Program-made: the position numbers and the translations under genes | Source of the DNA: Candidatus Altimarinota bacterium | Lineage (GTDB): Bacteria; Patescibacteriota; Gracilibacteria; CAIRYL01 | Length of the DNA: 64,000 nucleotides | Reading direction: 5' to 3' | Assembly: GCA_965250085.1 (NCBI GenBank) | Contig: OZ252287.1 | Span: 192,001 to 256,000, forward strand | Part shown: one piece after another, positions 1,990 to 18,057 of the stretch | Layout of the letters: the number at the start of each line of letters is the position of its first letter | Position numbering within the stretch: the stretch's first letter is position 1 | The notes under the pieces: generated by a model | The model's input: the letters and a program-made list of their open reading frames with translations, nothing else | Database searches by the model: none | Told to the model about the DNA's origin: nothing

Positions 1990-2976
1990 CTAAAACAACG
2001 TTCCCTGCAATGCTTCTTCTATATGAAGTCCTGGTGATCTTTTGTCAAAGTTGACTTGATACCCCTGCAGATCTTTGGTATTTAAGAGAATCTTTTCGGT
2101 ATCTGTTTCCAGCAAGAGGGATGCACCTTTGACACTGAGGACTGTGCCACTTACTGATTCCCCTTCCAAGAGCTTCAGCTCATGGAGGGGCTTTGGGGAA
2201 TTGAGACCATTTTGAAGATGGTAGATCTGATCAAATTTTTCGAGGATGGGAGGATCGAGTATGAATTCTTTTGCTTCTGGAAGGTCGAAAACAAGAGAAG
2301 GGAGATATTTTTGGAATGCATTCTCTAAAATTTTCTGAGCCTGAACTTCTGTGATTGCTGGAGATAGAAAAAACTTTTTTTGAGAAATATGTATCTTATC
2401 AGGAATGCCGCATTTAGTGAGAAATTTTTCTATCTGCCGTGCCAATATTCCGCCAATGCCTTTTGCAATAACGAGGGCATAGTGACTCCCCTGCTCTATC
2501 TGTCTCAAGTATCCTCTGCTGGTCGATGAAACTCCGACTTTATAGACACTTGTGCCAAAAAAAGCCAGATACACATAGTGCGGCACATTTATCCGCTCAA
2601 GATCTTCTGGAGAAAATAATTCCAGATTATATCCATCACAAAATTGTTCTACCATGAGTCCTTCTTTTTGTTTGCAGTCTGCGCATCTCTTCGTTCCTTT
2701 TGTGCCATGAGGACATGCATGCCTCTCGCCGTTTTTATAATATCCAATGCAGTCCGGACCACTGATGATCTCTAGGGAAAGGTTTTTCCCAAAAAGAACG
2801 GGAAGAGACTCTATAGAATCGCTTTCCCGAATGTGAAATTCGGGACAGTGTTCGTCTTTCCATCGAAATTCTAAAACATGAGGCACTTGGAGTTCTTCTA
2901 AAAGAGGATCCCATTGTAATGACAAGCTTGTTGGTGAGCAAGGTGGCAAAAGAAACTCACCTCGTTTGAGCCTCAT
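1990..2976 (-). CDS. DUF2797-family protein (Cys-rich N-region, GIY-YIG-like YVYLA...KVG motif)
   Basis: CIG...ACP...CADC cysteines and PHYVYLAFFG..YKVGVS...RQIEQG, recognised as the DUF2797 pattern. Confidence 0.75.
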   Translation of the reverse strand: MRLKRGEFLLPPCSPTSLSLQWDPLLEELQVPHVLEFRWKDEHCPEFHIRESDSIESLPVLFGKNLSLEIISGPDCIGYYKNGERHACPHGTKGTKRCADCKQKEGLMVEQFCDGYNLELFSPEDLERINVPHYVYLAFFGTSVYKVGVSSTSRGYLRQIEQGSHYALVIAKGIGGILARQIEKFLTKCGIPDKIHISQKKFFLSPAITEVQAQKILENAFQKYLPSLVFDLPEAKEFILDPPILEKFDQIYHLQNGLNSPKPLHELKLLEGESVSGTVLSVKGASLLLETDTEKILLNTKDLQGYQVNFDKRSPGLHIEEALQGTLF

Positions 2977-4361
2977 GCTCTCTGTTCCATACGACGAATA
3001 AATACTTCAGGATCTTCGATATTATTAAAAATGACATATCGCAAAACAAACTCGTCCGTATGACGGTATTTACTACGAAGTTCTCTTAAGAGAAATAGCT
3101 CTTTACCCTTAAGTATTTCAGGAACTAATGCTTTTTCTATAAACCTTTCTGGATCTCTAAGACTTTTGATAGCAGCGTGCCTTAGAATCCCTACTCCAAT
3201 TCTAGGATAACGTCTTTTCAATTCTTTTAGTGTTTCCAATACTCTCTCGATAAAGCCTTCTGGATCTAAGGGATTGTTGACGGCTGCATACTTCAGAATC
3301 CATACATCGACTTTCGGATACTGTTCCTCCAATTCTTTTAATGTTTCCAATACTCTCTTGATAAAGCCTTCCGGGTCTGCGGAATTGTTGAGAGCTGCAC
3401 GCTTCAAAATCGATACATCGACCTTAGGATACTTTACTTTTAGTTTTTCTATTTTTTCCATCACTCTCTCAATAAATTCTTCTGGGTTCTTAGGATGGTT
3501 GGCAGCTGCATGCTTCAAAATTTTTACATCGACCTTAGGATACTTTACTTTTAGTTTTTCTATTTTTTCCACCACTCTCTCGATAAAGCTTTCTGGGTCT
3601 GTGAGGTAATGAGTAGCTGCACGTTTCAAAATTCCTGCATCGACCTTAGGATACTTTACTTTTAGTTTTTCTATTTTTTCCACCACTCTCTCGATAAAGC
3701 TTTCTGGGTTTTTAGGAAAGCCGACAGCTGCATACTTTAGAATCGATGCATCGACCTGAGGATACTTTGCTTTTAGTTCTCCCATTTTTTCCACCAGTCT
3801 CTCGATAAACTTTTTTGGGTTTTTAGGATTGTTTGCAGCTGCATGCTTCAAAATCCCTACGTTAATTTCAGAGTATCTTTCTATAAACTCTTGCATACTT
3901 CCAGCGGTGAATGATTTTATGTATTTTTTGCTTGGAGAAAACCCCTGTGTTGCCAGTGCTCCTGTCTGCAAAACCGCCTGCTTGGTTACTTCTGTAATGA
4001 AAGTTTCCCAATTCTTTCGTGTTTCATACGCTTCTCCCTTATCTATGTATCCTTTGTTGCTTGCTCGTAAAAAAGCTTTGATCAGAGATCGCAGAGCACT
4101 TTGAATATGTTCAATATTTTCTTCTCCACCAATTAAATGTCTCAGAATATCACGACTATTCAGAAGTTGGTGAACCACTTCTTCTGCTGTATCAATATAT
4201 TGTTGGTCGAGCGAAGAAAAAGGTCCTCCTACAGAAACATCCGGATAACGAAAATACTCCTGAAATTTTTGGAGCAGTGCAAATGATCTCTCTAAACGCT
4301 CATTAATGGCACCTTGTGCCTCTTCAATATGGTGCGCCGATGTCGGCACAGAAGAAAGCAT
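2973..4361 (-). CDS. Tandem-repeat protein with eight 37-aa helical repeats and a unique ~160 aa N-terminus
   Basis: Consensus YPKVDxxILKxAAxxxxxDPExFIERVxEKIEKLKxK; stop overlaps the DUF2797 start (ATGA). Confidence 0.85.
   Translation of the reverse strand: MLSSVPTSAHHIEEAQGAINERLERSFALLQKFQEYFRYPDVSVGGPFSSLDQQYIDTAEEVVHQLLNSRDILRHLIGGEENIEHIQSALRSLIKAFLRASNKGYIDKGEAYETRKNWETFITEVTKQAVLQTGALATQGFSPSKKYIKSFTAGSMQEFIERYSEINVGILKHAAANNPKNPKKFIERLVEKMGELKAKYPQVDASILKYAAVGFPKNPESFIERVVEKIEKLKVKYPKVDAGILKRAATHYLTDPESFIERVVEKIEKLKVKYPKVDVKILKHAAANHPKNPEEFIERVMEKIEKLKVKYPKVDVSILKRAALNNSADPEGFIKRVLETLKELEEQYPKVDVWILKYAAVNNPLDPEGFIERVLETLKELKRRYPRIGVGILRHAAIKSLRDPERFIEKALVPEILKGKELFLLRELRSKYRHTDEFVLRYVIFNNIEDPEVFIRRMEQRA
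2976..3875 (-). repeat. 111 bp coding tandem repeat array
   Basis: Repeat starts at 3875, 3764, 3653, 3542, 3431, 3320 and 3209, plus a degenerate eighth unit. Confidence 0.9.
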
Positions 4362-4433: not shown

Positions 4434-5570
4434 TTATTCTTCCCCATCCGGAATATTGACTCCATGGCGATTGATCAGTTTCCGGAGAGCTTCTTTTTGT
4501 TTTTTGAGGAATTTGGTTTGTACGTCTACGATAATCGCGGTTTCTTGTACTTCATTTTTCCAGTATTCGGCAGTAGAAGTGCCCAAGACAGCAAACACTG
4601 AAGCATCAATATATTTTTCTCCTTTCAGAATCTCTTCAGTAATTTTTGATTGTTCTTCTTCCAGGCTCAAAAAGGCATCGTTGAGTTGGTCTTTTTTGAG
4701 AGCTGCATTTTCTCTCTTGGCTCTTGTCCCCTCTTTATCGTCTGTGAAGTAATCCTGCAAACCTCTTCTCGCACCTGCGTTCTCCTCTTGGCTTCCAAAA
4801 TATCGCTCATAGTCCAAAAGCTTTGTGAGAGAATTATTTTTTATCCAGCTCGACGCTTGTTTTTTTGCCTGTTTTTGTATTCCCTTTCGAGTTTCCCCGG
4901 AAAAAGCATTCTTCCAGCCTTGCGTCTTCAAAATATCCTTCCATTTGGGTCCGGTTGTCAGTTGTTTAATTTTGTCTTTAAGCTCAGAGAACTTTTGAGC
5001 AATCAGTGATGTTTTTCCTTCTCCTCCTCCCTCGCAATTTGCTTTTATATATTTCTCATCAAAGTACACACTCTCTTCGTGTCTACTGCAGGATCGTAGT
5101 GTGGCGATTTCTTTTTGCAAATCATCAATTTCATCCAGATATGTAGGAGTTTTGAGGGCAATCAGGCGTATAGCACTGAGCATATCTTCCAAATCATTTA
5201 CATCTTTGCGAATACAGGCAGATTTTCCGAGGAGCAAAAATGTTTCCTGAAAGTACAGTCGTGTCGAAAATGACCGCAGCCGAAACTCACTGCGCATGGA
5301 GATGTTGTCAGTACTTTGGTTCAGTACCAGGCTCTGCTCATGTTCGACAGTGATTTTTTTAAGAAGCTCTTTTGCTTTATATTCAATGGTCTGAAAAGCC
5401 GCTTTCTCAGAGCCAGCAAATTTTTCATCATATGTCTGCTGATAGGTTTCAGTAAATGCTTCGCACTTTTGCGGTATTTTGGCAGATGCTTCTCCCAGAA
5501 AAGAAAAACTTGCAAAAAAGAGAAAAGTGCCAAGGATGAAATATTTTTTAAGCATCATTTTTTGGAACAA
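4434..5570 (-). CDS. Hypothetical secreted helical protein, last gene of the surface locus
   Basis: Signal peptide (KKYFILGTFLFFASFSFLGEASA), four Cys, coiled-coil character; overlaps the upstream gene. Confidence 0.8.
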   Translation of the reverse strand: MFQKMMLKKYFILGTFLFFASFSFLGEASAKIPQKCEAFTETYQQTYDEKFAGSEKAAFQTIEYKAKELLKKITVEHEQSLVLNQSTDNISMRSEFRLRSFSTRLYFQETFLLLGKSACIRKDVNDLEDMLSAIRLIALKTPTYLDEIDDLQKEIATLRSCSRHEESVYFDEKYIKANCEGGGEGKTSLIAQKFSELKDKIKQLTTGPKWKDILKTQGWKNAFSGETRKGIQKQAKKQASSWIKNNSLTKLLDYERYFGSQEENAGARRGLQDYFTDDKEGTRAKRENAALKKDQLNDAFLSLEEEQSKITEEILKGEKYIDASVFAVLGTSTAEYWKNEVQETAIIVDVQTKFLKKQKEALRKLINRHGVNIPDGEE

Positions 5571-7108
5571 TGGGGAATATCATTTAGAATGGAAGTCATG
5601 TCAGGAATCTGGTTGGTGAAATCAAAAAAGTCATTTTTGAGCCTTTGCAGCTGAAACTCTATCTCCCGTGCAAATTCGAGATGTTCTTCCAGATACAAGT
5701 ACCGCTCAATATCACTGGGATCTCCAGCAGTGGAAGAGAGTATCTTGTGTATGCTTTCTTCAGAGATTTCCTGGTCATATATGGTACAAAAATCAAAAAT
5801 TTCTTCTTGCGTTTGTATACTTTCTGGCGAAAGTTTGGGGAGGATATTGCAGTCGGTTTCAAAGAGTATCTGTGCTAATTTGTAATTTGCAGATTCTCCT
5901 GTATCCGGGCTCTGAGTGGTGCTTTCGGTGATATCTTTTTCTTTGTCTTCCAGTGGTGTTTTACTGCGGTAGTTCAAGAATGGAACTTTCTTGGGAATGG
6001 CATTAAAGTCCATGCCTATTTTTCCAAACAATGAGTTATTATCCTTAATGACATAGTTTTCGTTACTGGCTTTTTTTGGCGTCTCTACGGTGTGGTCGAG
6101 GAGAGAAAGCACTTCATATCCTCTCTGTATCATGCACTCTATACAGGCTGGAGTTTCTATCGGTGCAAGTGAAAATCCCTGTCCAGGTCGTATTTCGGTA
6201 TAGACACAAAACAAATCTTTACAAAACTCCGGAACACAATACATGCCATTAAACAGGGGGACAGCTCGTTCGTTTTCTCCGCAAGTGTCTTGAGGATCTT
6301 TTGCCTCATGCTGTGGATATGTACCTCTCAAAAAATCTGATCTTTCTCCGGCAAGGTCTGGAAGTTCTCCAGGAACATCAGAAATATTTCCCTGATCTGG
6401 AAGGAAAATATTATCTTCATCTGAGGAATGAGAGCCATCAAATGAAGTCAGAAAGAGGGCATCAGGATCTTCACAAATATTTCCAGAAAAATCTCCATCC
6501 CCATCACCGTCTCCATCTCCTCCTGATTCGGAAGGATCTTCTATGGTGCTTCCTTCAAAAGAATCTCCTCTTCTCAAGCCTGCAACAATGTCAGCATATC
6601 GACGTGATCTGCCATCATAATAGACTCCGGGGATGTATGCAGGCGGTACGGTCGCATTGGGTCCAAAGAGCAGGACATCCAGGACATTCAAATCCACGAT
6701 GATATCAAAAGTACTATCGGAAAGCGTGCCATTACTCCATCTGTTTCGAGCGGCATTTTCTTCGGTGAGAATATATTCATACGATGCCAGGAGTTCTGCA
6801 GAGGCAAAGAGTTTCTGAAATCTTTGCCAGCATATAAAAGAGCTTCCCCTGTTTTTTTCTTCCAAATCACTGCAAAAACTGAGTTTCCCCAGATCTTTGA
6901 GTTTGGGTGCAGAGGTTCGCAGTGCCTGTATATCACTGATTTCTACACCGGTCTGCAGAGCCAGTCGTTCGGATGCCATTTGATCTGGTTTTATCTGAAT
7001 ATCTTCATAGATCCGTTGGTACAGATTTTCTTCTTCAAATGCTGTAGCAGTGCCTATTGCACTGAATGCAAAGAATGAAATGCCGAAAAGGAAGAGGAGT
7101 TTTTTCAT
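5555..7108 (-). CDS. Hypothetical secreted Cys-rich protein
   Basis: Signal peptide MKKLLFLFG...ATA, multiple Cys, acidic GDGDGDGD linker. Confidence 0.85.
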   Translation of the reverse strand: MKKLLFLFGISFFAFSAIGTATAFEEENLYQRIYEDIQIKPDQMASERLALQTGVEISDIQALRTSAPKLKDLGKLSFCSDLEEKNRGSSFICWQRFQKLFASAELLASYEYILTEENAARNRWSNGTLSDSTFDIIVDLNVLDVLLFGPNATVPPAYIPGVYYDGRSRRYADIVAGLRRGDSFEGSTIEDPSESGGDGDGDGDGDFSGNICEDPDALFLTSFDGSHSSDEDNIFLPDQGNISDVPGELPDLAGERSDFLRGTYPQHEAKDPQDTCGENERAVPLFNGMYCVPEFCKDLFCVYTEIRPGQGFSLAPIETPACIECMIQRGYEVLSLLDHTVETPKKASNENYVIKDNNSLFGKIGMDFNAIPKKVPFLNYRSKTPLEDKEKDITESTTQSPDTGESANYKLAQILFETDCNILPKLSPESIQTQEEIFDFCTIYDQEISEESIHKILSSTAGDPSDIERYLYLEEHLEFAREIEFQLQRLKNDFFDFTNQIPDMTSILNDIPHCSKK

Positions 7109-7113
7109 AGATA

Positions 7114-7797
7114 TTACTGGCTGGCGGCGTTAATAAACTTGGCGGGCATGCGGGCAATTTGCGTGATAAACTTTTCCCACATGTCCCGCAGATCTTTGGT
7201 TTCAGAAATAAGGTTTTCAAACTCTGCATGCAGTGGATACAGGAGCCGCATTTCTGCATAACTCGAGAGCGTGATGCGCAGGGCTTTTTCAGCAGTGATT
7301 TGCTCAAATGTAATCTGCTCCTTGAGGCCATACGCGCATTTGAGCGCTTCTTCCACGAGATCAGAAGAATTGGCGCAGAGCTGGTTACTCTTTTTGAGCG
7401 TTTCAAGTGCTGATGTATATGCTTTCAGTTCCAGTTGCCGGCTGACGTAAACACCAGCAAATTCTGTTTGTTCTGCAGTACGGTCTCTGTTCTGATCTGT
7501 CTGAAACGATGTTTTAGCGAGCTTTGTAAAAAGCGCATTAAATGCACTATTTGCTTCAGAATGATACGCGGTGCGTATGTTTTCAAATCTGGATTCAACA
7601 CTTCCCTTCTTCTGAACGGTGTCACAATACTCATTATTTTCATCTTGTTTTTCATAATCTTCACAGGTATGAAACTCGGCAAGTGTGTTGAGTTGTTGTA
7701 GTGCATCTTCCGAGACGACTTCCTGAGCAGAGAAGGAAGGTCTGATGAGCAGAAGTCCAAAGACCAAGGCCAGAGATGTGAAGAGAAGTTTTTTCAT
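7114..7797 (-). CDS. Hypothetical secreted helical protein
   Basis: Signal peptide, two Cys pairs, long amphipathic helices. Confidence 0.85.
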   Translation of the reverse strand: MKKLLFTSLALVFGLLLIRPSFSAQEVVSEDALQQLNTLAEFHTCEDYEKQDENNEYCDTVQKKGSVESRFENIRTAYHSEANSAFNALFTKLAKTSFQTDQNRDRTAEQTEFAGVYVSRQLELKAYTSALETLKKSNQLCANSSDLVEEALKCAYGLKEQITFEQITAEKALRITLSSYAEMRLLYPLHAEFENLISETKDLRDMWEKFITQIARMPAKFINAASQ

Positions 7798-7799
7798 AG

Positions 7800-8525
7800 T
7801 TATCGAGTGGTCGTTTTAGGGATAGTGCAGGAAACTTTTTGCAGGACGGACTTGAAGGTGGCAGAAAATTTTCTGGTGAGTTCTGTCAGCGGAAACTCTT
7901 CTTGAAACCCATTCATACGGGTATGAATTTCCTGAAGCTTCTGGCTGATATATCCAATCTGCTTATCCCGCACAGATTCCTTCATTTTTGATGCGAGCTT
8001 TGCCGACTGGATGCGCATCTTTACTTTTGCAAATTGGCGGCACTGAGCAATAATATTGAGCTTTGCTTCTCGTGGCTCGAGCAATGTGCACCCGACAAGA
8101 CTCTGATCATCCATTTCGAATATTTCCATGGCGTTTTCGACGTTCAATTCTTTTTCCCCTCCGTCAGCTCCGGAAATGGTATCCCCACAAATCTCCATTG
8201 TTGTTTTCTTCCACTTCTCATATGTGCCAGTGGTGACTTGAGACTCTACAAAACCGCACACAATGCTCAGTTGACACTCATAAGTCCCAATGGCGCTGGA
8301 AAAAAGTAATGCCGGATCCACGATTGCCGGATCGGTCAAAATGGGATCTGTTCGAGAAGTGAAGATCTCATCCACCTGGTCAAAGACAGTGGTATATCCT
8401 CTCAGACATTGATCAGGATTCACTGCTACAGATTCTTCTTCTGTTTGTGCATTTGTCAGCATCAAGGATGGTGCAAAGATGCTTCCGAGTACAGTGGCCA
8501 AAAGGAAAAGAAAAAATCGTTTCAT
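7800..8525 (-). CDS. Hypothetical secreted Cys-containing protein
   Basis: Signal peptide MKRFFLFLL..., several Cys, helical C-terminus. Confidence 0.85.
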   Translation of the reverse strand: MKRFFLFLLATVLGSIFAPSLMLTNAQTEEESVAVNPDQCLRGYTTVFDQVDEIFTSRTDPILTDPAIVDPALLFSSAIGTYECQLSIVCGFVESQVTTGTYEKWKKTTMEICGDTISGADGGEKELNVENAMEIFEMDDQSLVGCTLLEPREAKLNIIAQCRQFAKVKMRIQSAKLASKMKESVRDKQIGYISQKLQEIHTRMNGFQEEFPLTELTRKFSATFKSVLQKVSCTIPKTTTR

Positions 8526-8529
8526 CGTT

Positions 8530-11500
8530 TTAAAAGGAAAGAGGAGTACTTTCAGAAAAAATAACAGTATTTTCTGTATTTAATATCGCGGCTTTGATGA
8601 GATCTCCCGCACGAATATCACTTACAAAATCCAGAAGCCCACACAGAGCCGGGTCACCGGGGAAGATATGAACTCCTGGAGATAGGAGTTCTGCTTCCGG
8701 AATGATCGGACATCCCCGTGCGTCATCCAGATCTGTGGGGAGAAATGGACACACATCCTTCTTTCCATCTGTATCTCCATCTCCATCGCCATTACTATCT
8801 CCTGAAAGATCTGAGTCCGTGCCAGTATCCGAAGTGTTGGTATCAGTATCTGTTTCATCCGTTGAAGAAGTATCGTCTGCATCGCCTTCAGATGAATCCC
8901 CATCTTGAGTATCATCATCTGCATCATCACCAAATGGATTGGTACCTGCCGCAATTTCATCTGCATTGGAAACTCCATCTGCGTCCGCATCTTCATCGGC
9001 ATCATTGGGATCGGTCTCATCTAGTCCGACGTCTATCTCTTCAAAATCCATCAGTCCATCACCATCGGTGTCTTTTTCCCGGCAGTCGGCGACATCTAGA
9101 ATCTTTTTGGCCATAAAGGCAAATTCGGCGCGAGTGATCGGTTGCTCGGGCAGGACAAACCCTCCGTCTCGTACGGGAATAAGTCCCAGATTGATACCCG
9201 TCAGCACATATGGGGAGTACCAGGCATCATCAGGCACATCTCTGAGAGTGTCAGAAACATCAGATGTTTCTTCGAGCGATACTTCTGCAGATCTGAGGAG
9301 AATAGCTACTGCTTCTGCCCTGGAAATATTATTCACGGGTTTGAACTGCCCGTCACCATATCCTTCTATCATTCCCAGCTTTTTGGCCTTTGAAACGCAG
9401 AACGCATACCACTGTTCAAATGAGACATCGGGGAATGGGAATGGTTCAAAAAATCGATCGATTTCTGCTGTACTGGGGTTGGTACAATCCGCGCAAGCAG
9501 TTGCGCCCAGAACTATTTTGACAAATTCTGCACGGGTGATCTGCTGATCCGGACGAAAGGTGCTATCGGCATATCCTTCCAGGATATTTCGTGTGTACAG
9601 TTCAAAAATAGCATCGGCATAGGGATGCTCTGCATTGAGATCCGAGAAAGGAAATTCCAGAGTGGTGGTAATAATTTCTGCAGGATCTTGGTGAGAAGAA
9701 GCAAATTTGGAAACGTCTTGTTTTACTGCAAGTCGAGAAGATTTGGCAGTAAGATCTTCTCCCTGATGCAGAACGATGTCTTGAAAGTTTGTTGTGATGA
9801 AGATATCGAAGACAACATCATTATTTCTCAGAACCTCCAAAACAAGTGGTTCGGATGCAGGATCCTGAACTGTTTTGAGTCTGAGGTTCATATCATTTTG
9901 AGTGAATCTGATATCGCCTTCTTTGGAAATCATGGCCAAGGTCTTTTGCTCGTTTGCATCAAAAATGATTCCGCCTCCGGCAAATACACTTGCATCAGCC
10001 GGAAGATTTCCGAACTCAATTTGATCTTGAATATCGCGATCAAAGACACTGACTCCAGAAAGACGTCCCACTGATCCCTTCGTAAACTCGAATAGAGAAA
10101 GATACACATCACTTCTGTCATTAGCGATCAGGAAGACGCTACTGGCGATACGCCCATCCGAAGAGACGATAGCGACTCTGGGGAAATAGGTTCCATCCCC
10201 AGGAAATACCTCCAGGCGATACCCAGGAGCTTCCAAAATGATCTGACCAGTACTGGCAGAAACTCTGCCGATTATTTTTCCTGCAGTATCTTTGATCACC
10301 GCATCTGAAGAAAGGGAAAGATCTGGAACCGTAAATGTCCCCTTCTGATCTGTCATATATCTTCCACTCTGATCTGCGGAAGAGGTTTTGATCATTTTCC
10401 AGGTATCAAACCGGTTTCTCAGGAGCGAGATCGGAATATCTTTCAGCGGTGGAGATACTCTCCCCGTTATTTTCTTTTGTGCAAGATCTGCTTCTGTAAG
10501 GATTACATCAGGTGCAAATACTTCGAGAAGAAGAGGTACTTCTGTTGCATTCCCCCCTTCATCTGTCGCTGTCAGCAATATTCCCTTTGTTTGAGGCTCA
10601 TCAAATGGTCCCACTTGCACTTCATATCCCTGAGCATCTGTCACCCCATCTCTATCGAGATCCCATGCAAATGAGAGACTACTTTCAAAATCAAAGATAC
10701 CCTCGGCAGAAATATTTTCTGTTGTAAAGATGGGAATCCTCTTGGTACTCTCGCCGACAAACAGCGGACTCGAATCATCATTTTGAGCAATAGATGCCGC
10801 CAAGTGTCCTTCCGAGAGAGTTCCTGTCTTTCCATCAGCCATCAGATATCGCATCTTTATGGTCCAAAATCCTTCTTCGAGATCAAATTCGGTAAACGGT
10901 ACTATAAGTTCTGAAATCATTATTTCTTCATCGCGTTCAATATTCATTTCTTCTTTCAAGACATATTGAGACCTTGGGCCGGAGAGAAAGACATCACGCT
11001 CCGCACCAGTAGGAAGGTGTTCTTCCTTGAGAAGCAGTACATACTTTGTTTTACTCCCAGTATCTCGTACATGACCAGTGAGAGCGTTTGTAAGAATAAT
11101 TTCTACTCCAGCAATGCGAGGAGCATCTCTCTCTGCAAAAGAAAGAGATACTTGAGATCCGTTCATTTGGAGAGAAATGTTTTTCACTGCATCTATCTCA
11201 GGAGTAAAGCTTGAGAGTGACCCTATTTCCGGATCAAATGGAACTGGAAGTTTTGGTTTTTCAAACGTTCTGTTTTCTTTGACCAGCACTCTCTCCGCTG
11301 TGAGCAGTAGAAGGTCTTCATCACCATCTCTATCAATATCAACAAATCTCATATCTCGGACAGAATTAGCAAAATCATCATAGGCGACTACTTTCTGAGC
11401 ACTTTTTCGTTCGTGATCATAGACAAAAACCCCTCTTCTCTGATACTCACCTGCCGGAGCGCTATTGTGAACACTTTGTGAAGAAGAATTTGAAGAAAGA

Positions 11501-14500
11501 GAGGGTGTTTGTGGTGGAGGTACTAACTGGGCGACATGCTTTTTTGGTATTTCACTCAGAGATGCAATACGCTCTGATTTTGTTTTCCTTGATCTCTCTT
11601 CCTCAAAAAGAATAGAAATATCGTCTCGTGCGAGGAGATTTCTACTTCTTTCTCTATATTGTTCTTCACGATCCAGAAGTGCCGTACGCAGATTTTGTAA
11701 ATATACATACGACGGAGTTGTCCGAAAAGGAACAAACCGTGAAGGCTCCGCAATACCAAAATGTTCAGCGGCTTCTTCCACAGAGATTTCTCCGGTTTGC
11801 TGGGAAAGCTTTTGGAGCAGAGCAAACTGCTTTATCATTTCTTGTGAAATAGGTTCAATGCTCTGATTTGGCTTTTCCAAAGAATCTACTGGGTCAGAAG
11901 GAAGTGGTGTTCGAGGAGGTAAATCATCTCCTCCCCTCTCTCCTGGAAGTGGCTGGATGCGGATATCTTCGGGAAGAGTGTGTCTGAAATCGAGAATATC
12001 TCCAAAATCAAAATGTTCATTCATGACCTTCAGGAGTTCTTTTCTTTTTTCAAATACCAATCCATTCCATTTATCCACTTGTGTTCCCACGACCTCTAAG
12101 ACAGACTCAAAACTCAAAGTAAAATTGACCTGTGTGTGGACGCGGATTTCATCGATACCAGGAATATTGACACTTGGGAAAGAAAGATTAAGAAAATCCA
12201 TGTCTAGTAGAACGGAAGCAGGGCGATTGGTCAGAGTCTCAATAATTGGTTTGAGTCCTTGTTCCGGATAGATAAAAAGTCCTTTTTTTACAAAGAGACA
12301 GTACAGTTCTAAGAGCTTACTGGTAACTCTCATGATTTTACTAATGTCTGCAGTAACTTTTGGAAGTTTTGGTGGTGGTGGCACCGTTGGGAGCTCTGGA
12401 ATGGATACATCCGGAAATGGTGGAAGTTCCGGAAGTGGAGGAAGCTGTGGTAGTAATGGAACCTCAGGAAGGACAAGAGTGACGGTTGGAACTCGAGGGA
12501 GTTTAAGCCGTGGAAGCTTTGGGAAAGGCACCTCTACAGGAAAGAATCTGAGCCGTGGAACACTTACTTCTATAGATGCTTTGATCTGAGAGATATCTAA
12601 TACAATATCTGGCAAGCTGGGGAAAGTCAGTACCGGTGGAGTCGGAAGAAGTCCCAGCACACCTTCAAACACACTATTGGCGGTCGTAAATTTTTCTGCT
12701 TTGCAGGCACTACAGTTTTTGGTGGGATTATCAATTGCTTTGATCAGATCTTCCCATTGTTTCTTTATTTCTTTTGCTGTTTCAAAAAAGAGAATCCAAG
12801 ATTTTACCCGGTTCAAATTGGTCTGGAACCACCCACTCATCAAATCTGTAATGGCATCCACGTAGCAAATAAGACCATTTATATATTTGGCGAGTTCTTC
12901 ATCAAAATGAGATACAATATTGCGGAAATTGGTGTACTCTTCGAGGATTTCCAGATTTCGATCAATAGAGTTTAGAGTGCCCTGATACGCTGTATCAACT
13001 CGTTCTTGCATTTTTTGCCATGCCTGCTTTGCTTTGGAGCATTCTTCTTCAGAAATCCCCTCTTCACATTCCCAGTGAGCTATAAACTCTTTCCAATCTG
13101 CAATTTCATTGATGGCATGCTCTTTCCAACTGCTCATATCATCCACAATACGACTCATTTCTGACCTCGGAATATGTGGCACTTGAATACTAAAGGTCTC
13201 TTCTTCAACATCCAGTAGAGGAATACTTTTCAAGAATGAATACATCTGCTCTACGCTTTCAATCTTCTGATTGATTTTTTCAGTTCCGTCTTGAATCAGA
13301 TCCAATGTATCATAGGCTGATTGTGCTCCTTCTTCTTTTTGAGCTTCCGGAGGTTCTGCAGGAGGAACTCTTTCCTCCTGATCTTCTCTGAGAGATGCTC
13401 CCGTAAAATCTGGGTATACCAGAGTAAATGTTGGCATTTCAAATGCTTTTTTTATTTCACCTATCTGCGCACTGACCCAGCGATCAAAGAGTCCAGGTCC
13501 TGGCTGAGGAACGGCATTCCGTCCGGAAGAGGTATTAAATCGTACTGTGCCAATTTCATAGTCCACCCCTATTCGTCCGGAAGTCGGTATATTCCCCTGA
13601 GTGCTACCGTCTACGACAAACGCTACATTACCTCCTACTGATGAAATAGCCTTGTCGGCTTTGGAAAGGACATTTTGAATGCTCTCATTGATCTCTTTAC
13701 ATATATTGGTCACTGAATCGAGAATGGGTACTCCCGTTGCAAAACATTTCCCTACGCTATAAAGACCATTGCACAGAGCGATGCCAGTCCCTCCATTCAA
13801 AGTAGGGGAAATATAAAATCGAAAATAACTGGTTTTATCTTTAATACACTCAGGACCGAAACATACAAATTTTGGAGGGGTTTTAGTAAACCCAAACACA
13901 GGAGCCACAAATGGTTCATTTGGACCTTTTGCTCCTTCTCCGTTTGCCAGTTTTCCCAGAGTTTGATTCAACTGATTTTCCAAATTTCCAATTCGAGATG
14001 CCAAGCCAGCACCTCCAGTGGAATTTAAAATACTTTGAAAATCTTGAATAGGTTTGAGTCCTCCCTGTAAGGTTTGAGTTGCTGCATTTACCAGTGCCTG
14101 AGAGATATTTACCGGACCGGGGACAAGAAATGCATAGTTGATCGGCAATGCAAGACATCCTCCCCCTTGGCATGTCGCATTATTGACGACATCCAATGCC
14201 TTGCCGAGCTTTCTATCGAGTGTATCCAGGTGTTCACCAAATTCACTTCCATCGGTGCCAACAGTGAGTATCCCCTCTTGAAAGCTGATCCCATCATCAA
14301 AATAATCAGCAATGCCATTCTCATTCTCATCAGCACTCCATCCATCTTGAATTCCCTGAATGTGATCTGAAATGCCATCGGCATCACTATCGGTTTCAAA
14401 AGTATCGGGAATACCATTGTGATCAGCATCAGTGATATCAGGAAGGAAGTCAGGAGTCTCTGGTTCTTCTTGCTCTCTGATATGCTTGGTGTATGACCTC

Positions 14501-17500
14501 TTTCCGGTAGAGATAAAACTCAAGATTTCCTGATCTTCTGAATTGGGAAAAAAGAAGGAAATATCTACAATTTCATCATTTGGAAATCCCTCTTCGGAGA
14601 TATGTTCCAAAATAAACTGCCCTTCTGGCACATCCGTCAATATCAGGTCATATGTAATTTGAATACTTGCCTCCGCAGGAATATTCCACACCTGCAGTAC
14701 CAATCCTTCACGAGAAGATGGAGGAATGATAATCATCTCTTCTGTGCATCCCGTGCAAGCGAGACTCTGTGGATCATATTCCATACCCGCGAGGATCATA
14801 TCTCTGAGGTGTAGCTCTGATGATTGAGAGGAAACAGTAAGCGTCACTTGCACACGATCATTTTTTTGCAGAGTGTTACCATTTACATCGTGAAGAGTTT
14901 TTTGTATTCCCCTTGCAGGAATATTTGAAAGAGCGGTAAACAAAGCAGTCTCTCCAATATTTGAATTGTGATAAGAAATACTTCCAGAATCAAAGGTGTT
15001 AGAATTTTGAATCCCATCAGTCAGTTCTGCTGCCCAAAGATTACTTCCACTTGGATTTCCTGCTGCTTGTGCTGAGAGGACTTCTGCTACTTCACTCTGA
15101 GAAGGTTTGGTATCACTTGGAATCAGAAATTCTTCTGTGAAAACTCCCTCTGGAATATCTAATCCAGAAATCAAGAGAGTATCAGATATTCCTTCGTCAG
15201 AAAGAGTTCCTCCCACAACATCTAGCCGGACAGGATCTTCCAATTCTCCGTTCCTGGTGCCATATCTGATCTGCAACTCACCACTCAGAGTATGTGCGAC
15301 CAGGTCAGAATATCCGTCCCCGTCCAAATCTTCCAGCAGTGCACTATGGACCTTGTCTTCCAGCGTTTCCTGTATAGAGAGAACACCTTTTTCATTGTGT
15401 ACCACAATATGATCATCATTGGTTTCGACCAGAAGATCTGAAAAATTATCATTCGAATCACTACTGAGAATTTGATCTATCCCCTTTGTCAGTTCCAACC
15501 CTTCTCCCCAATTTCGAAAAGCTCCTTCTGTGCTCGCGAGAAGAAATTCAGCAGTTTCAGATCCTTTTTGAAGAACAATGTCAGAAAGCTCATCTCCGTC
15601 TATCTCAGCATCATCCAAACTTTGAAAATCAAAAAATGGAGAGAAATGAACTTCTGTTCCCACTGTATTATCAAATCCAGTACTTCCTACTGCAGGAGGT
15701 TTGAGCGAAAGAGTAGGATCCCCCCATGTCATCAGAAGCGGTGTCGTCATATGCTTCATGGCATTCCCTATATTCTGACCACCAGCAATCAAAAGATTTG
15801 CAATTGCCTCCTGTTCCCATCCCACACCACCTACGTCTTGCGACACTGCATCTGAAGCACCTTCATACAGCAGGACTTCTTCTGTTTCATCAAAAAATAT
15901 ATGCCCAGCAGAAGATTCTCCGTTTTGAGGAAGAATCTTTGCTCCCTTGATGACAAACTGTCCGACATGCTTGGTGTGGTCAAGCATCAGACCTAGTTGT
16001 AAGTTTTTATTTTCATCTTGTAAAACTTTAAGAGAAAATCGATTGTCAAAGATTTGAAAAGAAAGATGTGCGTCAACACTCATAATTTTTCTTCCATCCA
16101 AAAAAATCTCAATGTTTTTATTATCTCCTGATGTGGTGAGTACATCTGCTGTATCAAGTGAAGAAAACAAAACACCATTTTCTCCTGGAGCGAAACCTTT
16201 TGTGGTCAGAACTCCATTTGCTGGGGGCAAGAGTTCAAATTCAGAAAGAGTTTTAAAAGTAATTCCGTCGAGAAGAGTAATACTCAGAGGGTCCAGTGAT
16301 GAGAGAGTTGCTACTACTGTTTCATCAATTATATGCACATCGCCATTCTCCCCAATAGAAGCTCTTTGAGCAGAGCTTGTAGCACTTTGCGTAAGTCCGG
16401 TAAAAGATAATGTTTTTCCAGAAAAAATCATGTCTTGAGCCAAATTACTATGGAGTGGATGAGCAGTAGGAGTTCCGAAAAATTGTGTCATCAAAGCATT
16501 TGGCCGTATGACAGCAAATCCTTCTGCAGTAATGGCAGATCCGAAAGAGAGTTCCAGTGGAGTCGTGGTATTTTTATATTCTGCAATAATTCTGAGTGTT
16601 CCAGTATCTCCAGAAGGCGTAATCACTACTTGGTTCCCTTCTTTTTGTGCTTGGGCAAGACTTTGGGTGCTGCTGTGAACTGTGACCGAAAGATCTTCGG
16701 GGAAATCTTCTGGGGCAGATACGACATCTCCTGAAGCAAGACGAAGAGCAAGATCGATACGAGTAGGGGAATTCAAAGAAAGAGTTTCTGGAGGGTTTAG
16801 AAAAAGAATTTCTGCAATTTCTGTGGCGCCTCCATTCTCTCCCAAGAGCAGTTTTGCTGATTGAGCATATGGCATAGTCGCCGAGAGAGTCACTGGGCCC
16901 CTGCGCACTCCCACGGGGAGAGTTGCTTTTCCTTCTTTCAAGGTATAGCGCGTATTTGAAAGAATTGCTTTGGTGGGATCAGAAATCGCAACAGTCACTT
17001 CTCCATTATTACCTATTTCGTTCCCCTCTTCTCCTTGAACTGAAATATCTACGGTAAAAAGTGTTACCCCTTTGTTTTGCTGAGGTTCTTCGTCAGAGAG
17101 TTCAAGGTTGAGCTTGAGCTCTGAAACCACTGAAACAGATATTTCTTGTGTTCCAACTACCTCAGAAGTAGCCGTGAGAGTGATTTTTCCTGTCTGGGTT
17201 GCTTGAAATGGAACCTCAAAACTTCCGGAAACGACAAAAATTTGAATTCCCGCTGCATCTGGATTGATATCCGCTACGAGAAGTTCACCTGCTCCATGAA
17301 GAGAGACAGTAATCTCAATACCTCCTGCAGCCGTTTTGACACCGTTCGCGTCAACAATATCTCCCGAAAGGTGAGACTTCATTCCCGGAGAAAGTACGAG
17401 ATCTGAAGTGGTGAGACGAATTCCCACTGGATCTTCCCGAGAGAGTGGCTCTACCAGATCTCCAGTGCGTCGATCTCTAAATGGCTGAGCACTGAGTGCA

Positions 17501-18057
17501 TCATATTCTGCATCTACGCTACAGACTCGTTTTTCAAATATGCCAAGCTCTTCAAAACTCTGTATCCAACACACGACAGAAGGGATCCATTCCCAGATAT
17601 CCACTCCATCCAATGGTGCACACTCCCCTCTTAAAGGAGGACTCTGTTCTTCATTTTCTCTCGCATCAGTTACAGAATTCTGAATCGAATCCAGCACTAT
17701 TTGATTCCATTCCAAATCACTCTCAGTTTTATCCGGCCCTTTCCAAGAGAGTGTGTTTTCTTCTCCATCAGATCGGAAGTATGCCAAAGCGTATCCTTTC
17801 TCCTTTGCTCCTGGGAGGAATTGATTTTCTGCATCAAAGAACAAACGCACCACCTCTGTATGCTTTTCATGTATATTTAATGTTTTCCAATTGAGCAAGG
17901 TTCTCAGGAGATCTGAATCAATTGAAACTATTTTTTTCTGCAAAAATCCATTTTCCGGAAGCTCTAACGCTGGGAATAGCATCACCTCTACTTCTGCTCC
18001 GAGTGGGATAAAAAGCTCTATTTCTCGTTCAAAAAAGTCAAAAACATTCTTTTCCAT
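8530..18057 (-). CDS. Giant cell-surface protein (Ig-like, FG-GAP/VCBS, TSP3-like Ca-binding, Pro-rich, 3 SLH domains); probably the C-terminal part of a split gene
   Basis: SLH motifs (GYADSTFRPDQQITRAEF, GYGDGQFKPVNNISRAEA, PEQPITRAEF), DLDGDGYSDL and DIDRDGDEDL, DTDGDGLMD and DADADGVSN. No signal peptide. Confidence 0.9.
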   Translation of the reverse strand: MEKNVFDFFEREIELFIPLGAEVEVMLFPALELPENGFLQKKIVSIDSDLLRTLLNWKTLNIHEKHTEVVRLFFDAENQFLPGAKEKGYALAYFRSDGEENTLSWKGPDKTESDLEWNQIVLDSIQNSVTDARENEEQSPPLRGECAPLDGVDIWEWIPSVVCWIQSFEELGIFEKRVCSVDAEYDALSAQPFRDRRTGDLVEPLSREDPVGIRLTTSDLVLSPGMKSHLSGDIVDANGVKTAAGGIEITVSLHGAGELLVADINPDAAGIQIFVVSGSFEVPFQATQTGKITLTATSEVVGTQEISVSVVSELKLNLELSDEEPQQNKGVTLFTVDISVQGEEGNEIGNNGEVTVAISDPTKAILSNTRYTLKEGKATLPVGVRRGPVTLSATMPYAQSAKLLLGENGGATEIAEILFLNPPETLSLNSPTRIDLALRLASGDVVSAPEDFPEDLSVTVHSSTQSLAQAQKEGNQVVITPSGDTGTLRIIAEYKNTTTPLELSFGSAITAEGFAVIRPNALMTQFFGTPTAHPLHSNLAQDMIFSGKTLSFTGLTQSATSSAQRASIGENGDVHIIDETVVATLSSLDPLSITLLDGITFKTLSEFELLPPANGVLTTKGFAPGENGVLFSSLDTADVLTTSGDNKNIEIFLDGRKIMSVDAHLSFQIFDNRFSLKVLQDENKNLQLGLMLDHTKHVGQFVIKGAKILPQNGESSAGHIFFDETEEVLLYEGASDAVSQDVGGVGWEQEAIANLLIAGGQNIGNAMKHMTTPLLMTWGDPTLSLKPPAVGSTGFDNTVGTEVHFSPFFDFQSLDDAEIDGDELSDIVLQKGSETAEFLLASTEGAFRNWGEGLELTKGIDQILSSDSNDNFSDLLVETNDDHIVVHNEKGVLSIQETLEDKVHSALLEDLDGDGYSDLVAHTLSGELQIRYGTRNGELEDPVRLDVVGGTLSDEGISDTLLISGLDIPEGVFTEEFLIPSDTKPSQSEVAEVLSAQAAGNPSGSNLWAAELTDGIQNSNTFDSGSISYHNSNIGETALFTALSNIPARGIQKTLHDVNGNTLQKNDRVQVTLTVSSQSSELHLRDMILAGMEYDPQSLACTGCTEEMIIIPPSSREGLVLQVWNIPAEASIQITYDLILTDVPEGQFILEHISEEGFPNDEIVDISFFFPNSEDQEILSFISTGKRSYTKHIREQEEPETPDFLPDITDADHNGIPDTFETDSDADGISDHIQGIQDGWSADENENGIADYFDDGISFQEGILTVGTDGSEFGEHLDTLDRKLGKALDVVNNATCQGGGCLALPINYAFLVPGPVNISQALVNAATQTLQGGLKPIQDFQSILNSTGGAGLASRIGNLENQLNQTLGKLANGEGAKGPNEPFVAPVFGFTKTPPKFVCFGPECIKDKTSYFRFYISPTLNGGTGIALCNGLYSVGKCFATGVPILDSVTNICKEINESIQNVLSKADKAISSVGGNVAFVVDGSTQGNIPTSGRIGVDYEIGTVRFNTSSGRNAVPQPGPGLFDRWVSAQIGEIKKAFEMPTFTLVYPDFTGASLREDQEERVPPAEPPEAQKEEGAQSAYDTLDLIQDGTEKINQKIESVEQMYSFLKSIPLLDVEEETFSIQVPHIPRSEMSRIVDDMSSWKEHAINEIADWKEFIAHWECEEGISEEECSKAKQAWQKMQERVDTAYQGTLNSIDRNLEILEEYTNFRNIVSHFDEELAKYINGLICYVDAITDLMSGWFQTNLNRVKSWILFFETAKEIKKQWEDLIKAIDNPTKNCSACKAEKFTTANSVFEGVLGLLPTPPVLTFPSLPDIVLDISQIKASIEVSVPRLRFFPVEVPFPKLPRLKLPRVPTVTLVLPEVPLLPQLPPLPELPPFPDVSIPELPTVPPPPKLPKVTADISKIMRVTSKLLELYCLFVKKGLFIYPEQGLKPIIETLTNRPASVLLDMDFLNLSFPSVNIPGIDEIRVHTQVNFTLSFESVLEVVGTQVDKWNGLVFEKRKELLKVMNEHFDFGDILDFRHTLPEDIRIQPLPGERGGDDLPPRTPLPSDPVDSLEKPNQSIEPISQEMIKQFALLQKLSQQTGEISVEEAAEHFGIAEPSRFVPFRTTPSYVYLQNLRTALLDREEQYRERSRNLLARDDISILFEEERSRKTKSERIASLSEIPKKHVAQLVPPPQTPSLSSNSSSQSVHNSAPAGEYQRRGVFVYDHERKSAQKVVAYDDFANSVRDMRFVDIDRDGDEDLLLLTAERVLVKENRTFEKPKLPVPFDPEIGSLSSFTPEIDAVKNISLQMNGSQVSLSFAERDAPRIAGVEIILTNALTGHVRDTGSKTKYVLLLKEEHLPTGAERDVFLSGPRSQYVLKEEMNIERDEEIMISELIVPFTEFDLEEGFWTIKMRYLMADGKTGTLSEGHLAASIAQNDDSSPLFVGESTKRIPIFTTENISAEGIFDFESSLSFAWDLDRDGVTDAQGYEVQVGPFDEPQTKGILLTATDEGGNATEVPLLLEVFAPDVILTEADLAQKKITGRVSPPLKDIPISLLRNRFDTWKMIKTSSADQSGRYMTDQKGTFTVPDLSLSSDAVIKDTAGKIIGRVSASTGQIILEAPGYRLEVFPGDGTYFPRVAIVSSDGRIASSVFLIANDRSDVYLSLFEFTKGSVGRLSGVSVFDRDIQDQIEFGNLPADASVFAGGGIIFDANEQKTLAMISKEGDIRFTQNDMNLRLKTVQDPASEPLVLEVLRNNDVVFDIFITTNFQDIVLHQGEDLTAKSSRLAVKQDVSKFASSHQDPAEIITTTLEFPFSDLNAEHPYADAIFELYTRNILEGYADSTFRPDQQITRAEFVKIVLGATACADCTNPSTAEIDRFFEPFPFPDVSFEQWYAFCVSKAKKLGMIEGYGDGQFKPVNNISRAEAVAILLRSAEVSLEETSDVSDTLRDVPDDAWYSPYVLTGINLGLIPVRDGGFVLPEQPITRAEFAFMAKKILDVADCREKDTDGDGLMDFEEIDVGLDETDPNDADEDADADGVSNADEIAAGTNPFGDDADDDTQDGDSSEGDADDTSSTDETDTDTNTSDTGTDSDLSGDSNGDGDGDTDGKKDVCPFLPTDLDDARGCPIIPEAELLSPGVHIFPGDPALCGLLDFVSDIRAGDLIKAAILNTENTVIFSESTPLSF

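Follow-up and report, generated by a model that had tools for sequence, protein, structure and literature searches.

Helical repeats built on a fixed scaffold with a small number of specificity positions, such as those of TALE, PUF, PPR, ankyrin, and alphaRep proteins, have been the most useful sources of programmable binders. The TALE repeat is 33 to 35 amino acids (aa) long and carries two variable residues in the loop between its helices; PUF proteins use His, Tyr, and Arg for base stacking and have a three-helix unit of about 36 aa. The HEAT-like family that is parent to alphaRep is reportedly prokaryotic and is said to combine a fixed scaffold with a few hypervariable positions on one helix, which form a protein-binding surface. 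Known CUE and UBA domains are single or separated by linkers and are not fused in register. Here we describe a repeat gene in a 64,000-nucleotide (nt) stretch of DNA from Candidatus Altimarinota bacterium (contig OZ252287.1, positions 192,001 to 256,000); this whole stretch is called the window, and positions below are counted in it unless another locus is named.

Over three units, the best natural structural match to the product of this gene is the SOUBA of human UBAP1 (PDB 4ae4). The paper on SOUBA (PMC3314968) describes a rigid solenoid of overlapping UBAs, each contributing its helix 3 as helix 1 of its neighbor. Helices 1 and 3 make up the convex face, which binds ubiquitin, and the concave face is lined by the second helix of every UBA. 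Our results support the assignment of the window protein to an undescribed family of modular helical solenoids, and a modular recognition stripe running along the array is well supported. What the stripe recognizes is a more tentative matter, on which we lean toward a protein or peptide.

An array of 37-residue repeats

The gene is a minus-strand open reading frame (ORF) encoding a 462-aa protein (P0001). An earlier note, made from the letters of the window, had placed eight 37-aa repeats at 2976..3875. They were confirmed there, on the minus strand, with the eighth unit truncated. The features are as follows.

2973..4361, minus strand: whole repeat gene, 462 aa, N-terminus without a hydrophobic stretch
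3876..4361, minus strand: N-terminal helical domain, aa 1-162 (from the model and profile comparison)
2976..3875, minus strand: repeat array, aa 163-462, eight units (from repeat finding and the model)
3765..3875, minus strand: unit 1, aa 163-199
3654..3764, minus strand: unit 2, aa 200-236
3543..3653, minus strand: unit 3, aa 237-273
3432..3542, minus strand: unit 4, aa 274-310
3321..3431, minus strand: unit 5, aa 311-347
3210..3320, minus strand: unit 6, aa 348-384
3069..3209, minus strand: unit 7, aa 385-421, plus a 10-aa insertion, aa 422-431
2976..3068, minus strand: unit 8, aa 432-462, degenerate and truncated, a C-terminal cap
3638..3709, minus strand: 72-nt scaffold stretch, codon 19 of unit 2 to codon 5 of unit 3, identical to 3527-3598
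3527..3598, minus strand: second copy of the 72-nt scaffold stretch, identical to 3638-3709

Units 1 to 7 are contiguous, with 37 aa each and starts at aa 163, 200, 237, 274, 311, 348, and 385. Tandem Repeats Finder reported a period of 111 nt (5.8 copies, 79% matches, score 593) and also a period of 222 (score 723). The residues that the earlier note had listed for the units proved exact at position 7 (G, S, G, K, S, W, G, F), at position 11 (H, Y, R, H, R, Y, H, Y), and at positions 14 to 18 (ANNPK, VGFPK, THYLT, ANHPK, LNNSA, VNNPL, IKSLR, FNNIE), and the stretches from ACCCAGAAAGC to TATCCTAAGGTCGATG that it had called identical are the two 72-nt copies listed above. Its broader suggestion, that the scaffold is conserved at the DNA level beyond the variable cassette, held among units 2 to 4, in which the scaffold is 92 to 97% identical and the cassette (codons 6 to 18) 51 to 67% (Fisher p 1e-3 to 8e-9), but not in the other 12 of the 15 pairs among units 1 to 6, in which scaffold and cassette are about equally diverged and the difference is not significant.

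A variable stripe on a conserved scaffold

A unit profile aligning 346 units from 115 proteins of the family has a conserved scaffold at positions 1 (Y/F), 2 (P), 9 (I), 12-13 (A/A), 17 (P), 20 (P), 23 (F), 24 (L/I), 31, and 34 (L). Differences between units of the same protein, taken over 32 proteins with at least four aligned units, were highest at positions 11 (0.87), 15 (0.86), 22 (0.82), and 7 (0.79). When the core positions 5 to 24 were ranked in 64 proteins, position 11 was among the four most variable 35 times, position 15 32 times, position 7 29 times, and position 6 28 times, against 12.8 expected by chance. Less variation was seen at the loop sites 16 and 18 than at 7, 11, and 15, which are on the short helix. 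A fixed scaffold with a few hypervariable positions on one helix face, as first noticed in the window gene, thus recurs in independent lineages.

Variation is concentrated at the same sites where the units of one protein are otherwise nearly uniform. The 462-aa protein has one paralogue in the same genome (G000:C1:522264-523442; L002:1345-2721, minus strand), with 62% identity and eight units, seven of them full 111-nt, near-identical copies arranged as a duplicated three-unit block of types A, B, C, A, B, C, A. These seven differ at 5 nucleotides, of which 4 change an amino acid (codons 5, 7, 11, and 15) and 1 is synonymous (codon 6). The pattern returns in a 39-aa sister type of unit in a Margulisiibacteriota MAG (metagenome-assembled genome), where the residues equivalent to position 11 are H, R, R, H, Y, Y and those equivalent to position 15 are H, G, Y, H, H, I. 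In units 2 to 4 of the window gene, non-synonymous differences reach 0.56 to 0.60 at the 8 variable codons, while synonymous differences at the 29 scaffold codons are 0.11 to 0.17. The variable codons thus lie far above the synonymous rate of the scaffold. This codon class was picked post hoc from the same gene, and the ratio of non-synonymous to synonymous change within it is about 0.8, which by itself is not above 1.

The stripe comprises the short helix, on its free face, together with the loop that follows, and it is rich in His, Tyr, Arg, Asn, Trp, Ser, Gly, and Lys. Acidic residues make up 92 of 2420 (3.8%) at its positions 7, 10, 11, 14, 15, 16, and 18, compared with 989 of 2003 (49%) at six other exposed positions and 13.9% overall. 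His, Tyr, and Arg, which the earlier note had singled out at position 11, account for 57% of that position across the family; about 75% of the residues at position 16 are Asn, Tyr, or His, and K/R/S/T stand at positions 10 and 18 (44% and 31% basic, respectively).

We also considered a discrete residue code for the stripe. Positions 7, 11, 15, and 16 occur in 299 distinct combinations in 343 units, and covariation among them stayed at z of 2.6 or less, with mutual information no higher than at control positions of the long helix; together these results speak against such a code. The eight most common residue pairs at positions 11 and 15 cover 33% of 345 units.

Predicted structure of the units

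AlphaFold2 models were made of the full-length protein, with an 86-row alignment, and of a 129-aa three-unit fragment (m6bc13b1b66ab; 3321-3707, minus strand). The mean predicted local distance difference test (pLDDT) of the full-length model is 87 overall and about 97 in the units; the fragment reached a pLDDT of 96.9 and a predicted template modeling (pTM) score of 0.84, with seven helices. By DSSP, the unit in the model is a 10-residue helix (positions 6 to 15), a 4-residue loop (16 to 19), and an 18-residue helix (20 to 37). In the model, positions 7, 11, and 14/15 lie on one face of the short helix, as the earlier note had proposed, with the conserved positions 8, 9, 12, and 13 opposite. 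Each long-short-long triple of helices has, in the model, the shape of a UBA/CUE three-helix bundle, and neighboring bundles share a long helix, so that the modeled array is a rigid solenoid of overlapping bundles.

When 48,161 chains were searched by structure without bias, single triples proved similar to numerous CUE/UBA-type bundles, with Z-scores of 5.0 to 6.9 and root mean square deviations (rmsd) mostly of 1.2 to 2.5 Å over 42 to 49 aa; these, like all fold Z-scores given here, lie below 8, a range in which, by the tool's own notes, helical repeats can match by chance. The matches include SMARCAD1 CUE1 (Z 6.0 to 6.2), the EF-Ts N-domain (Z 5.8 to 5.9), the Dcn1 UBA (Z 5.9), the Cue2 CUE (Z 5.5), and domains of Tollip and TDP2; a looser one, 6h3a_B on the full model, has an rmsd of 4.8 Å over 54 aa. 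When the three-unit fragment was compared with longer solenoids, the VIA-align Z was 5.8 for SOUBA, 4.2 for a designed toroid (PDB 4yxx), 3.4 for BurrH, 3.2 for the TALE dHax3, and 2.6 for mTERF4. Foldseek gave template modeling (TM) scores of 0.51 for the toroid, 0.37 for SOUBA, 0.30 to 0.34 for TALEs, and 0.30 to 0.33 for mTERF1 and mTERF4.

Sequence profiles gave CUE matches in part of the family. Pfam CUE (PF02845; cut-off 21.1 bits) matched 20 of 86 members at an E value of 1e-3 or less, the 462-aa protein not being among them. In 8 of 42 re-scanned proteins CUE was found at 1e-5 or less, where whole-protein scores of 26 to 58 bits are sums of partial matches with no stretch significant alone. 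The partial matches fall at profile positions of about 2 to 38, mostly 2 to 24; the part of the unit aligned to about 2 to 24 runs from the end of the long helix through the Y/F-P loop into the short helix. The alternative raised in the earlier note, tandem CUE/UBA-like three-helix units, has better structural support than a TALE/PUF-like array, from the triples and from SOUBA, with the qualifications that every Z is below 8 and that the 462-aa protein itself has no CUE match. The description that fits the modeled array best is a long, SOUBA-like solenoid in which UBA/CUE-like bundles overlap, without a close solved natural counterpart.

A rare family without a curated counterpart

A scan of 1.84 billion representative proteins found relatives in 208 clusters at an E value of 1e-3 or less, 122 at 1e-10, and 19 at 1e-30. 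The family derives from Patescibacteria, Margulisiibacteriota, Omnitrophota, and Planctomycetota metagenome-assembled genomes (MAGs); sources named in the clusters are Levybacteria, Phycisphaerales, and Omnitrophota MAGs, and genome records add Parcubacteria, Margulisiibacteriota, and another Patescibacteria MAG. Seven of 20 clusters looked up bear a name, which in six is "hypothetical protein" and in one comes from an unrelated HPr domain. Members share a divergent helical N-domain of about 160 aa followed by 1 to 12 tandem units of 37 to 41 aa, and the array begins at aa 150 to 190 in 99 of the listed members. The median is 4 units per protein, with 81 of 151 proteins having 4 or fewer, although these counts are lower bounds because some proteins are fragments. 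A match was found in 1 of 60 related genomes and in 2 of 400 sampled across the phylum, figures that describe the genomes searched and are not proof of absence elsewhere.

The family falls outside all curated Pfam and NCBIfam entries. The 462-aa protein has no Pfam match above the curated cut-off and no NCBIfam match; the Pfam models TAL_effector, PUF, PPR, and mTERF did not match it, TAL_effector (PF03377) not even at an E value of 1 or less, and HEAT models did not reach their cut-off. TAL_effector is also absent from the 25 listed of the 40 Pfam families matched by the 86 members. PADLOC gave only sub-threshold matches for the protein, and a word-indexed protein search returned 1 match with the protein and 2 with the 86-row profile. 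Against all PDB sequences, the best E value of the 86-member profile was 0.032 (AP-1 beta); the Vps9 CUE reached 0.14. As for viral relatives, IMG/VR yielded 55 pattern matches of which 0 were confirmed, 50,697 phage records yielded none, and the BFVD viral structures contained none at 1e-3 or less. No description of the family was found in the literature on SOUBA, TALE-like metagenome repeats, and UBA-like tandem solenoids, supplements not opened. The earlier suggestion of a possibly undescribed modular nucleic-acid-binding solenoid is supported as far as an undescribed family and a modular helical solenoid are concerned.

Two published screens would have missed this family. The one from 2024, on DNA-binding tandem-repeat proteins, covered periods of 15 to 35 aa only (PMC11417379), and the TALE-inspired one from 2017 required at least 11 adjacent similar units (PMC5472282).

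Candidate ligands of the stripe

The family is rare, patchy, and fast-changing in poorly known bacterial lineages, Patescibacteria and others, which suggests a role in the recognition of a variable partner. For the array and its stripe, we consider a protein or peptide a likelier ligand than a nucleic acid, a judgment that we hold only tentatively. By analogy with SOUBA, the stripe would lie on the concave side and would serve as a modular recognition surface, with each unit contributing a small patch; recombination between units would homogenize the scaffold while selection would keep the patches different, and the ligand would most likely be a protein or peptide partner. In favor of such a ligand are the short arrays, the acidic paralogue together with a negative family mean charge (-0.6 net per unit), and the lack of a discrete residue set. 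UBA/CUE-type folds are usually protein-contact modules, and residues such as Tyr, Trp, Arg, His, Ser, and Gly also typically occur in the hot spots of protein binding.

Several observations weigh against a protein or peptide ligand. The fold matches on which the UBA/CUE comparison draws all fall within the chance range of Z, and the CUE sequence matches are weak partial sums of a kind that the homogenized paralogue also collects from unrelated families. The geometry of the superhelix, its electrostatics, and the concave location of the stripe are inferred. No conserved neighboring gene was found across the 10 or so other loci examined. The codon class with the high non-synonymous rate was a post hoc choice and does not exceed a ratio of 1. 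Finally, a stripe that is free of acidic residues, is rich in His, Tyr, Arg, and Asn, and has K/R/S/T on its flanks (positions 10 and 18) would also suit a polyanion such as nucleic acid, and Foldseek places TALEs at the top for the full model (E 5.5e-4, probability 1.0).

The last two points belong to the strongest competitor, a modular nucleic acid reader, which we regard as rather unlikely. Here the stripe would contact extended RNA or DNA at 1 to 2 bases per unit, with positions 11 and 16 stacking on or bonding to bases and positions 10 and 18 holding phosphates. The preferences at 11 and 16, the scarcity of acidic residues, and the basic content of 10 and 18 are what such a reader would show; after the TALEs, the best Foldseek matches of the whole model extend to BurrH and mTERF1 (E 5.5e-4 to 3e-2), and the window array is basic (isoelectric point [pI] 9.6; 61 K+R, 46 D+E). 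One metagenomic protein (P0099) fuses about 15 sister units to sigma-70 regions 2 to 4, and the nearest ESM Atlas cluster, at a best score of 0.76 that serves as a lead only, carries the TAL_effector family.

Other observations weigh against a nucleic acid reader. The AlphaFold and Foldseek check that the earlier note had called for did return a helical solenoid with TALEs on top, but the TALE superposition of the whole model has a TM of 0.17 and an rmsd of 23 Å, and on three units TALEs, BurrH, and mTERF4 all score below SOUBA by Z, while the best superposition, on a closed six-repeat toroid (TMq 0.51), suggests tight curvature. Pfam TALE, PUF, PPR, and mTERF models do not match the protein, a median of 4 units (a lower bound, like the 81 of 151 proteins with 4 or fewer) is too few for useful sequence specificity, and the array of the paralogue is strongly acidic (pI 4.9; 38 K+R, 63 D+E; net charge about -25). 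The case for the one-repeat-one-base code of the earlier note is weakened on these grounds, and also because each unit has two helices in place of the three of PUF and the variable positions do not covary beyond controls or settle on a few common pairs at 11 and 15. A related reading is a new, naturally programmable reader of single-stranded nucleic acid made of UBA-derived units of 37 aa, each specifying 1 to 2 bases by its positions 7, 11, 15, and 16; the two paralogues of this genome would then carry different "words." This we likewise hold to be unlikely. A nucleic acid code is possible but less likely than a protein ligand.

We think it improbable that the array binds some other polymer or ligand of polar or anionic character, for example a polysaccharide, a teichoic-acid-like polymer, polyphosphate, or a phosphorylated tail. 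Periodic units with an acid-poor stripe rich in aromatic residues, His, Asn, Ser, and Gly would be suited to this, but no signal peptide was found in the 462-aa protein when judged by eye, so it is probably cytoplasmic; moreover, the loci examined have no conserved sugar- or polymer-related neighbor, and carbohydrate-binding folds are not among the fold matches.

We would give still less weight to the proposal that the array has no specific ligand and is a spacer or scaffold whose variable positions merely tolerate change while recombination homogenizes the remainder. Such tolerance would accommodate the ratio of about 0.8 within the variable codons and the ease with which units expand and homogenize, as well as one homologue split by a frame change. 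It fits poorly with homogenized arrays in which exposed long-helix positions are identical while 11, 15, and 7 differ, as they do in members of different phyla, and the stripe alphabet is restricted, excluding acidic and aliphatic residues, a pattern that neutral tolerance would not produce.

The least probable ligand is a ubiquitin-like protein, bound through the convex face (long helices and aromatic-Pro loop) with the variable stripe incidental: the units do resemble CUE/UBA domains solved with ubiquitin (Cue2 1otr, Z 5.5; TDP2 UBA, Z 5.0; EDD UBA, Z 4.7), Pfam CUE is matched by the 20 members noted above, and the conserved Y/F-P at positions 1 and 2 sits where UBAs carry their M/L-G-F/Y loop, but ubiquitin binding by the units is unlikely judged by context, since the hosts are free-living or episymbiotic bacteria, no ubiquitin-like, E1/E2, or JAB genes adjoin the loci examined, the exposed long-helix positions are about 49% acidic and not a hydrophobic patch, and diversification of the opposite face would go unexplained.

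Gene neighborhood, N-domain, and other members

Downstream of the repeat gene, at 1990-2976 on the minus strand, lies a DUF2797 gene (Pfam E 3.5e-18) whose start shares an ATGA overlap with the stop codon of the repeat gene. DUF2797 is present in 9 of 11 genomes of the same family and 6 of 8 of the same order, all without the repeat gene and with flanks that are not syntenic. Because most close relatives keep DUF2797 and lack the repeat gene, the repeat gene looks inserted upstream of it. No promoter-like site was seen between the repeat gene and the gene upstream. At other loci the neighbors are unrelated and include genes for EF-P, YidC, HrcA/GrpE, SpoU, Fic, HepT/MNT, transposases, metG, and TatD. 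Accessory or mobile surroundings recur among members: one metagenomic member (L016; 4564-5422 and 999-1895) stands beside a HepT/MNT toxin-antitoxin pair and a Fic-domain gene, another (L013) has a DDE transposase nearby, and the paralogue adjoins a transposase fragment, a Bax-inhibitor-like membrane protein, and a tilS-like gene (all named by eye from translations).

Elsewhere in the window, at 4434-18057 on the minus strand, are four consecutive proteins of 378, 517, 227, and 241 aa that belong to no Pfam or NCBIfam family and whose N-termini look hydrophobic by eye. The protein encoded upstream of these four has 3175 aa and matches an S-layer-homology (SLH) domain close to its C-terminal end, so the region may be a cell-surface gene cluster.

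The N-domain of the 462-aa protein is 69% identical to that of the paralogue and scores 7.9 bits against an N-domain profile from 99 members, so it is divergent from the family. Its fold matches are weak and generic (Z of 5.8 or less), among them the Sld7 C-domain, PHIST, and ECF sigma-2 domains. A sigma-like N-domain was suggested by P0099 (965 aa, from a metagenome), in which the roughly 15 units, which belong to a 37-aa sister type, precede a complete sigma-70 (regions 2, 3, and 4); this idea was dropped for want of a sequence signal. An ORF in a Margulisiibacteriota MAG (L012:3996-5861) has the N-terminal part and units in common with P0099 and lacks the sigma regions. In P0080 (609 aa, from a metagenome), a SIR2_2 domain (ThsA-like in PADLOC, E 8.5e-11) precedes 41-aa helical repeats that searches link to the family; these may be a different repeat type, the sensor of a defense protein. 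The closest homologue in a genome record (L011:3445-4421, from a Parcubacteria MAG; 61% in the best segment) consists of two ORFs in different frames, split after the first unit; either this copy is decaying or its repeats were misassembled.

Comparison with known systems

The family approaches several known solenoids. The best overall Foldseek superposition of the three-unit fragment is on the designed left-handed alpha/alpha toroid 4yxx (rmsd 5.3 Å over 131 columns, 24 to 26% identity with two aligners; by VIA, rmsd 3.5 Å over 106 aa at the Z given above). That protein is an artificial closed ring of six 35-aa units without a function, and the likeness concerns curvature and hairpin handedness only. 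We note that a natural family comes close to the geometry of a designed toroid that was presented as artificial. Natural HEAT-like repeats behind the artificial alphaRep binders are the subject of PMC3754942. The unit of such repeats, a HEAT-like hairpin of about 31 aa, differs from the 37-aa unit.

The window protein resembles PUF proteins in its eight units of similar length and in His, Tyr, or Arg at one recurring helix position. It differs in having two helices per unit and no Pfam PUF (PF00806) match, and the number of units ranges from 1 to 12 in the family; no PUF structure is among the fold matches listed. TALE and BurrH arrays are likewise built of two-helix units (short helix, loop, long helix) that are nearly identical to one another and carry a few hypervariable residues at and after the end of the short helix. 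The period of 37 aa is longer than that of TALE repeats, and the main variable sites (7, 11, and 15) are on the helix and not in a loop di-residue.

The modeled units resemble the three-helix bundle of about 40 aa of CUE and UBA domains, on which they superpose with Z-scores below 8. The bundles of the family are fused in register, however, and the UBA M/L-G-F/Y motif is absent, a Y/F-P loop standing in its place. SOUBA itself overlaps its bundles as the modeled array does, with one 18-residue helix between 10-residue helices in the model, a likeness of architecture that does not by itself show common descent. Run against all PDB sequences, the 86-member profile gave no UBAP1 match at an E value of 1 or less. 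The match has a Z of 6.7 over 98 of 115 aa with the full model and of 5.8 over 110 of 115 aa with the three-unit fragment, for which Foldseek TM scores are only 0.37 to 0.40. SOUBA comprises three bundles, is eukaryotic, and binds ubiquitin on its convex face through M/L-G-F/Y loops (PMC3314968), whereas the family reaches up to 12 units, has the Y/F-P loop, and diversifies the opposite face; the period in the window protein is a strict 37 aa. Natural variation already shows which positions would set the specificity of the family. To the fixed-scaffold repeats it thereby adds a scaffold of different geometry, a long solenoid in which UBA/CUE-like bundles overlap, previously known only as the three-unit SOUBA.

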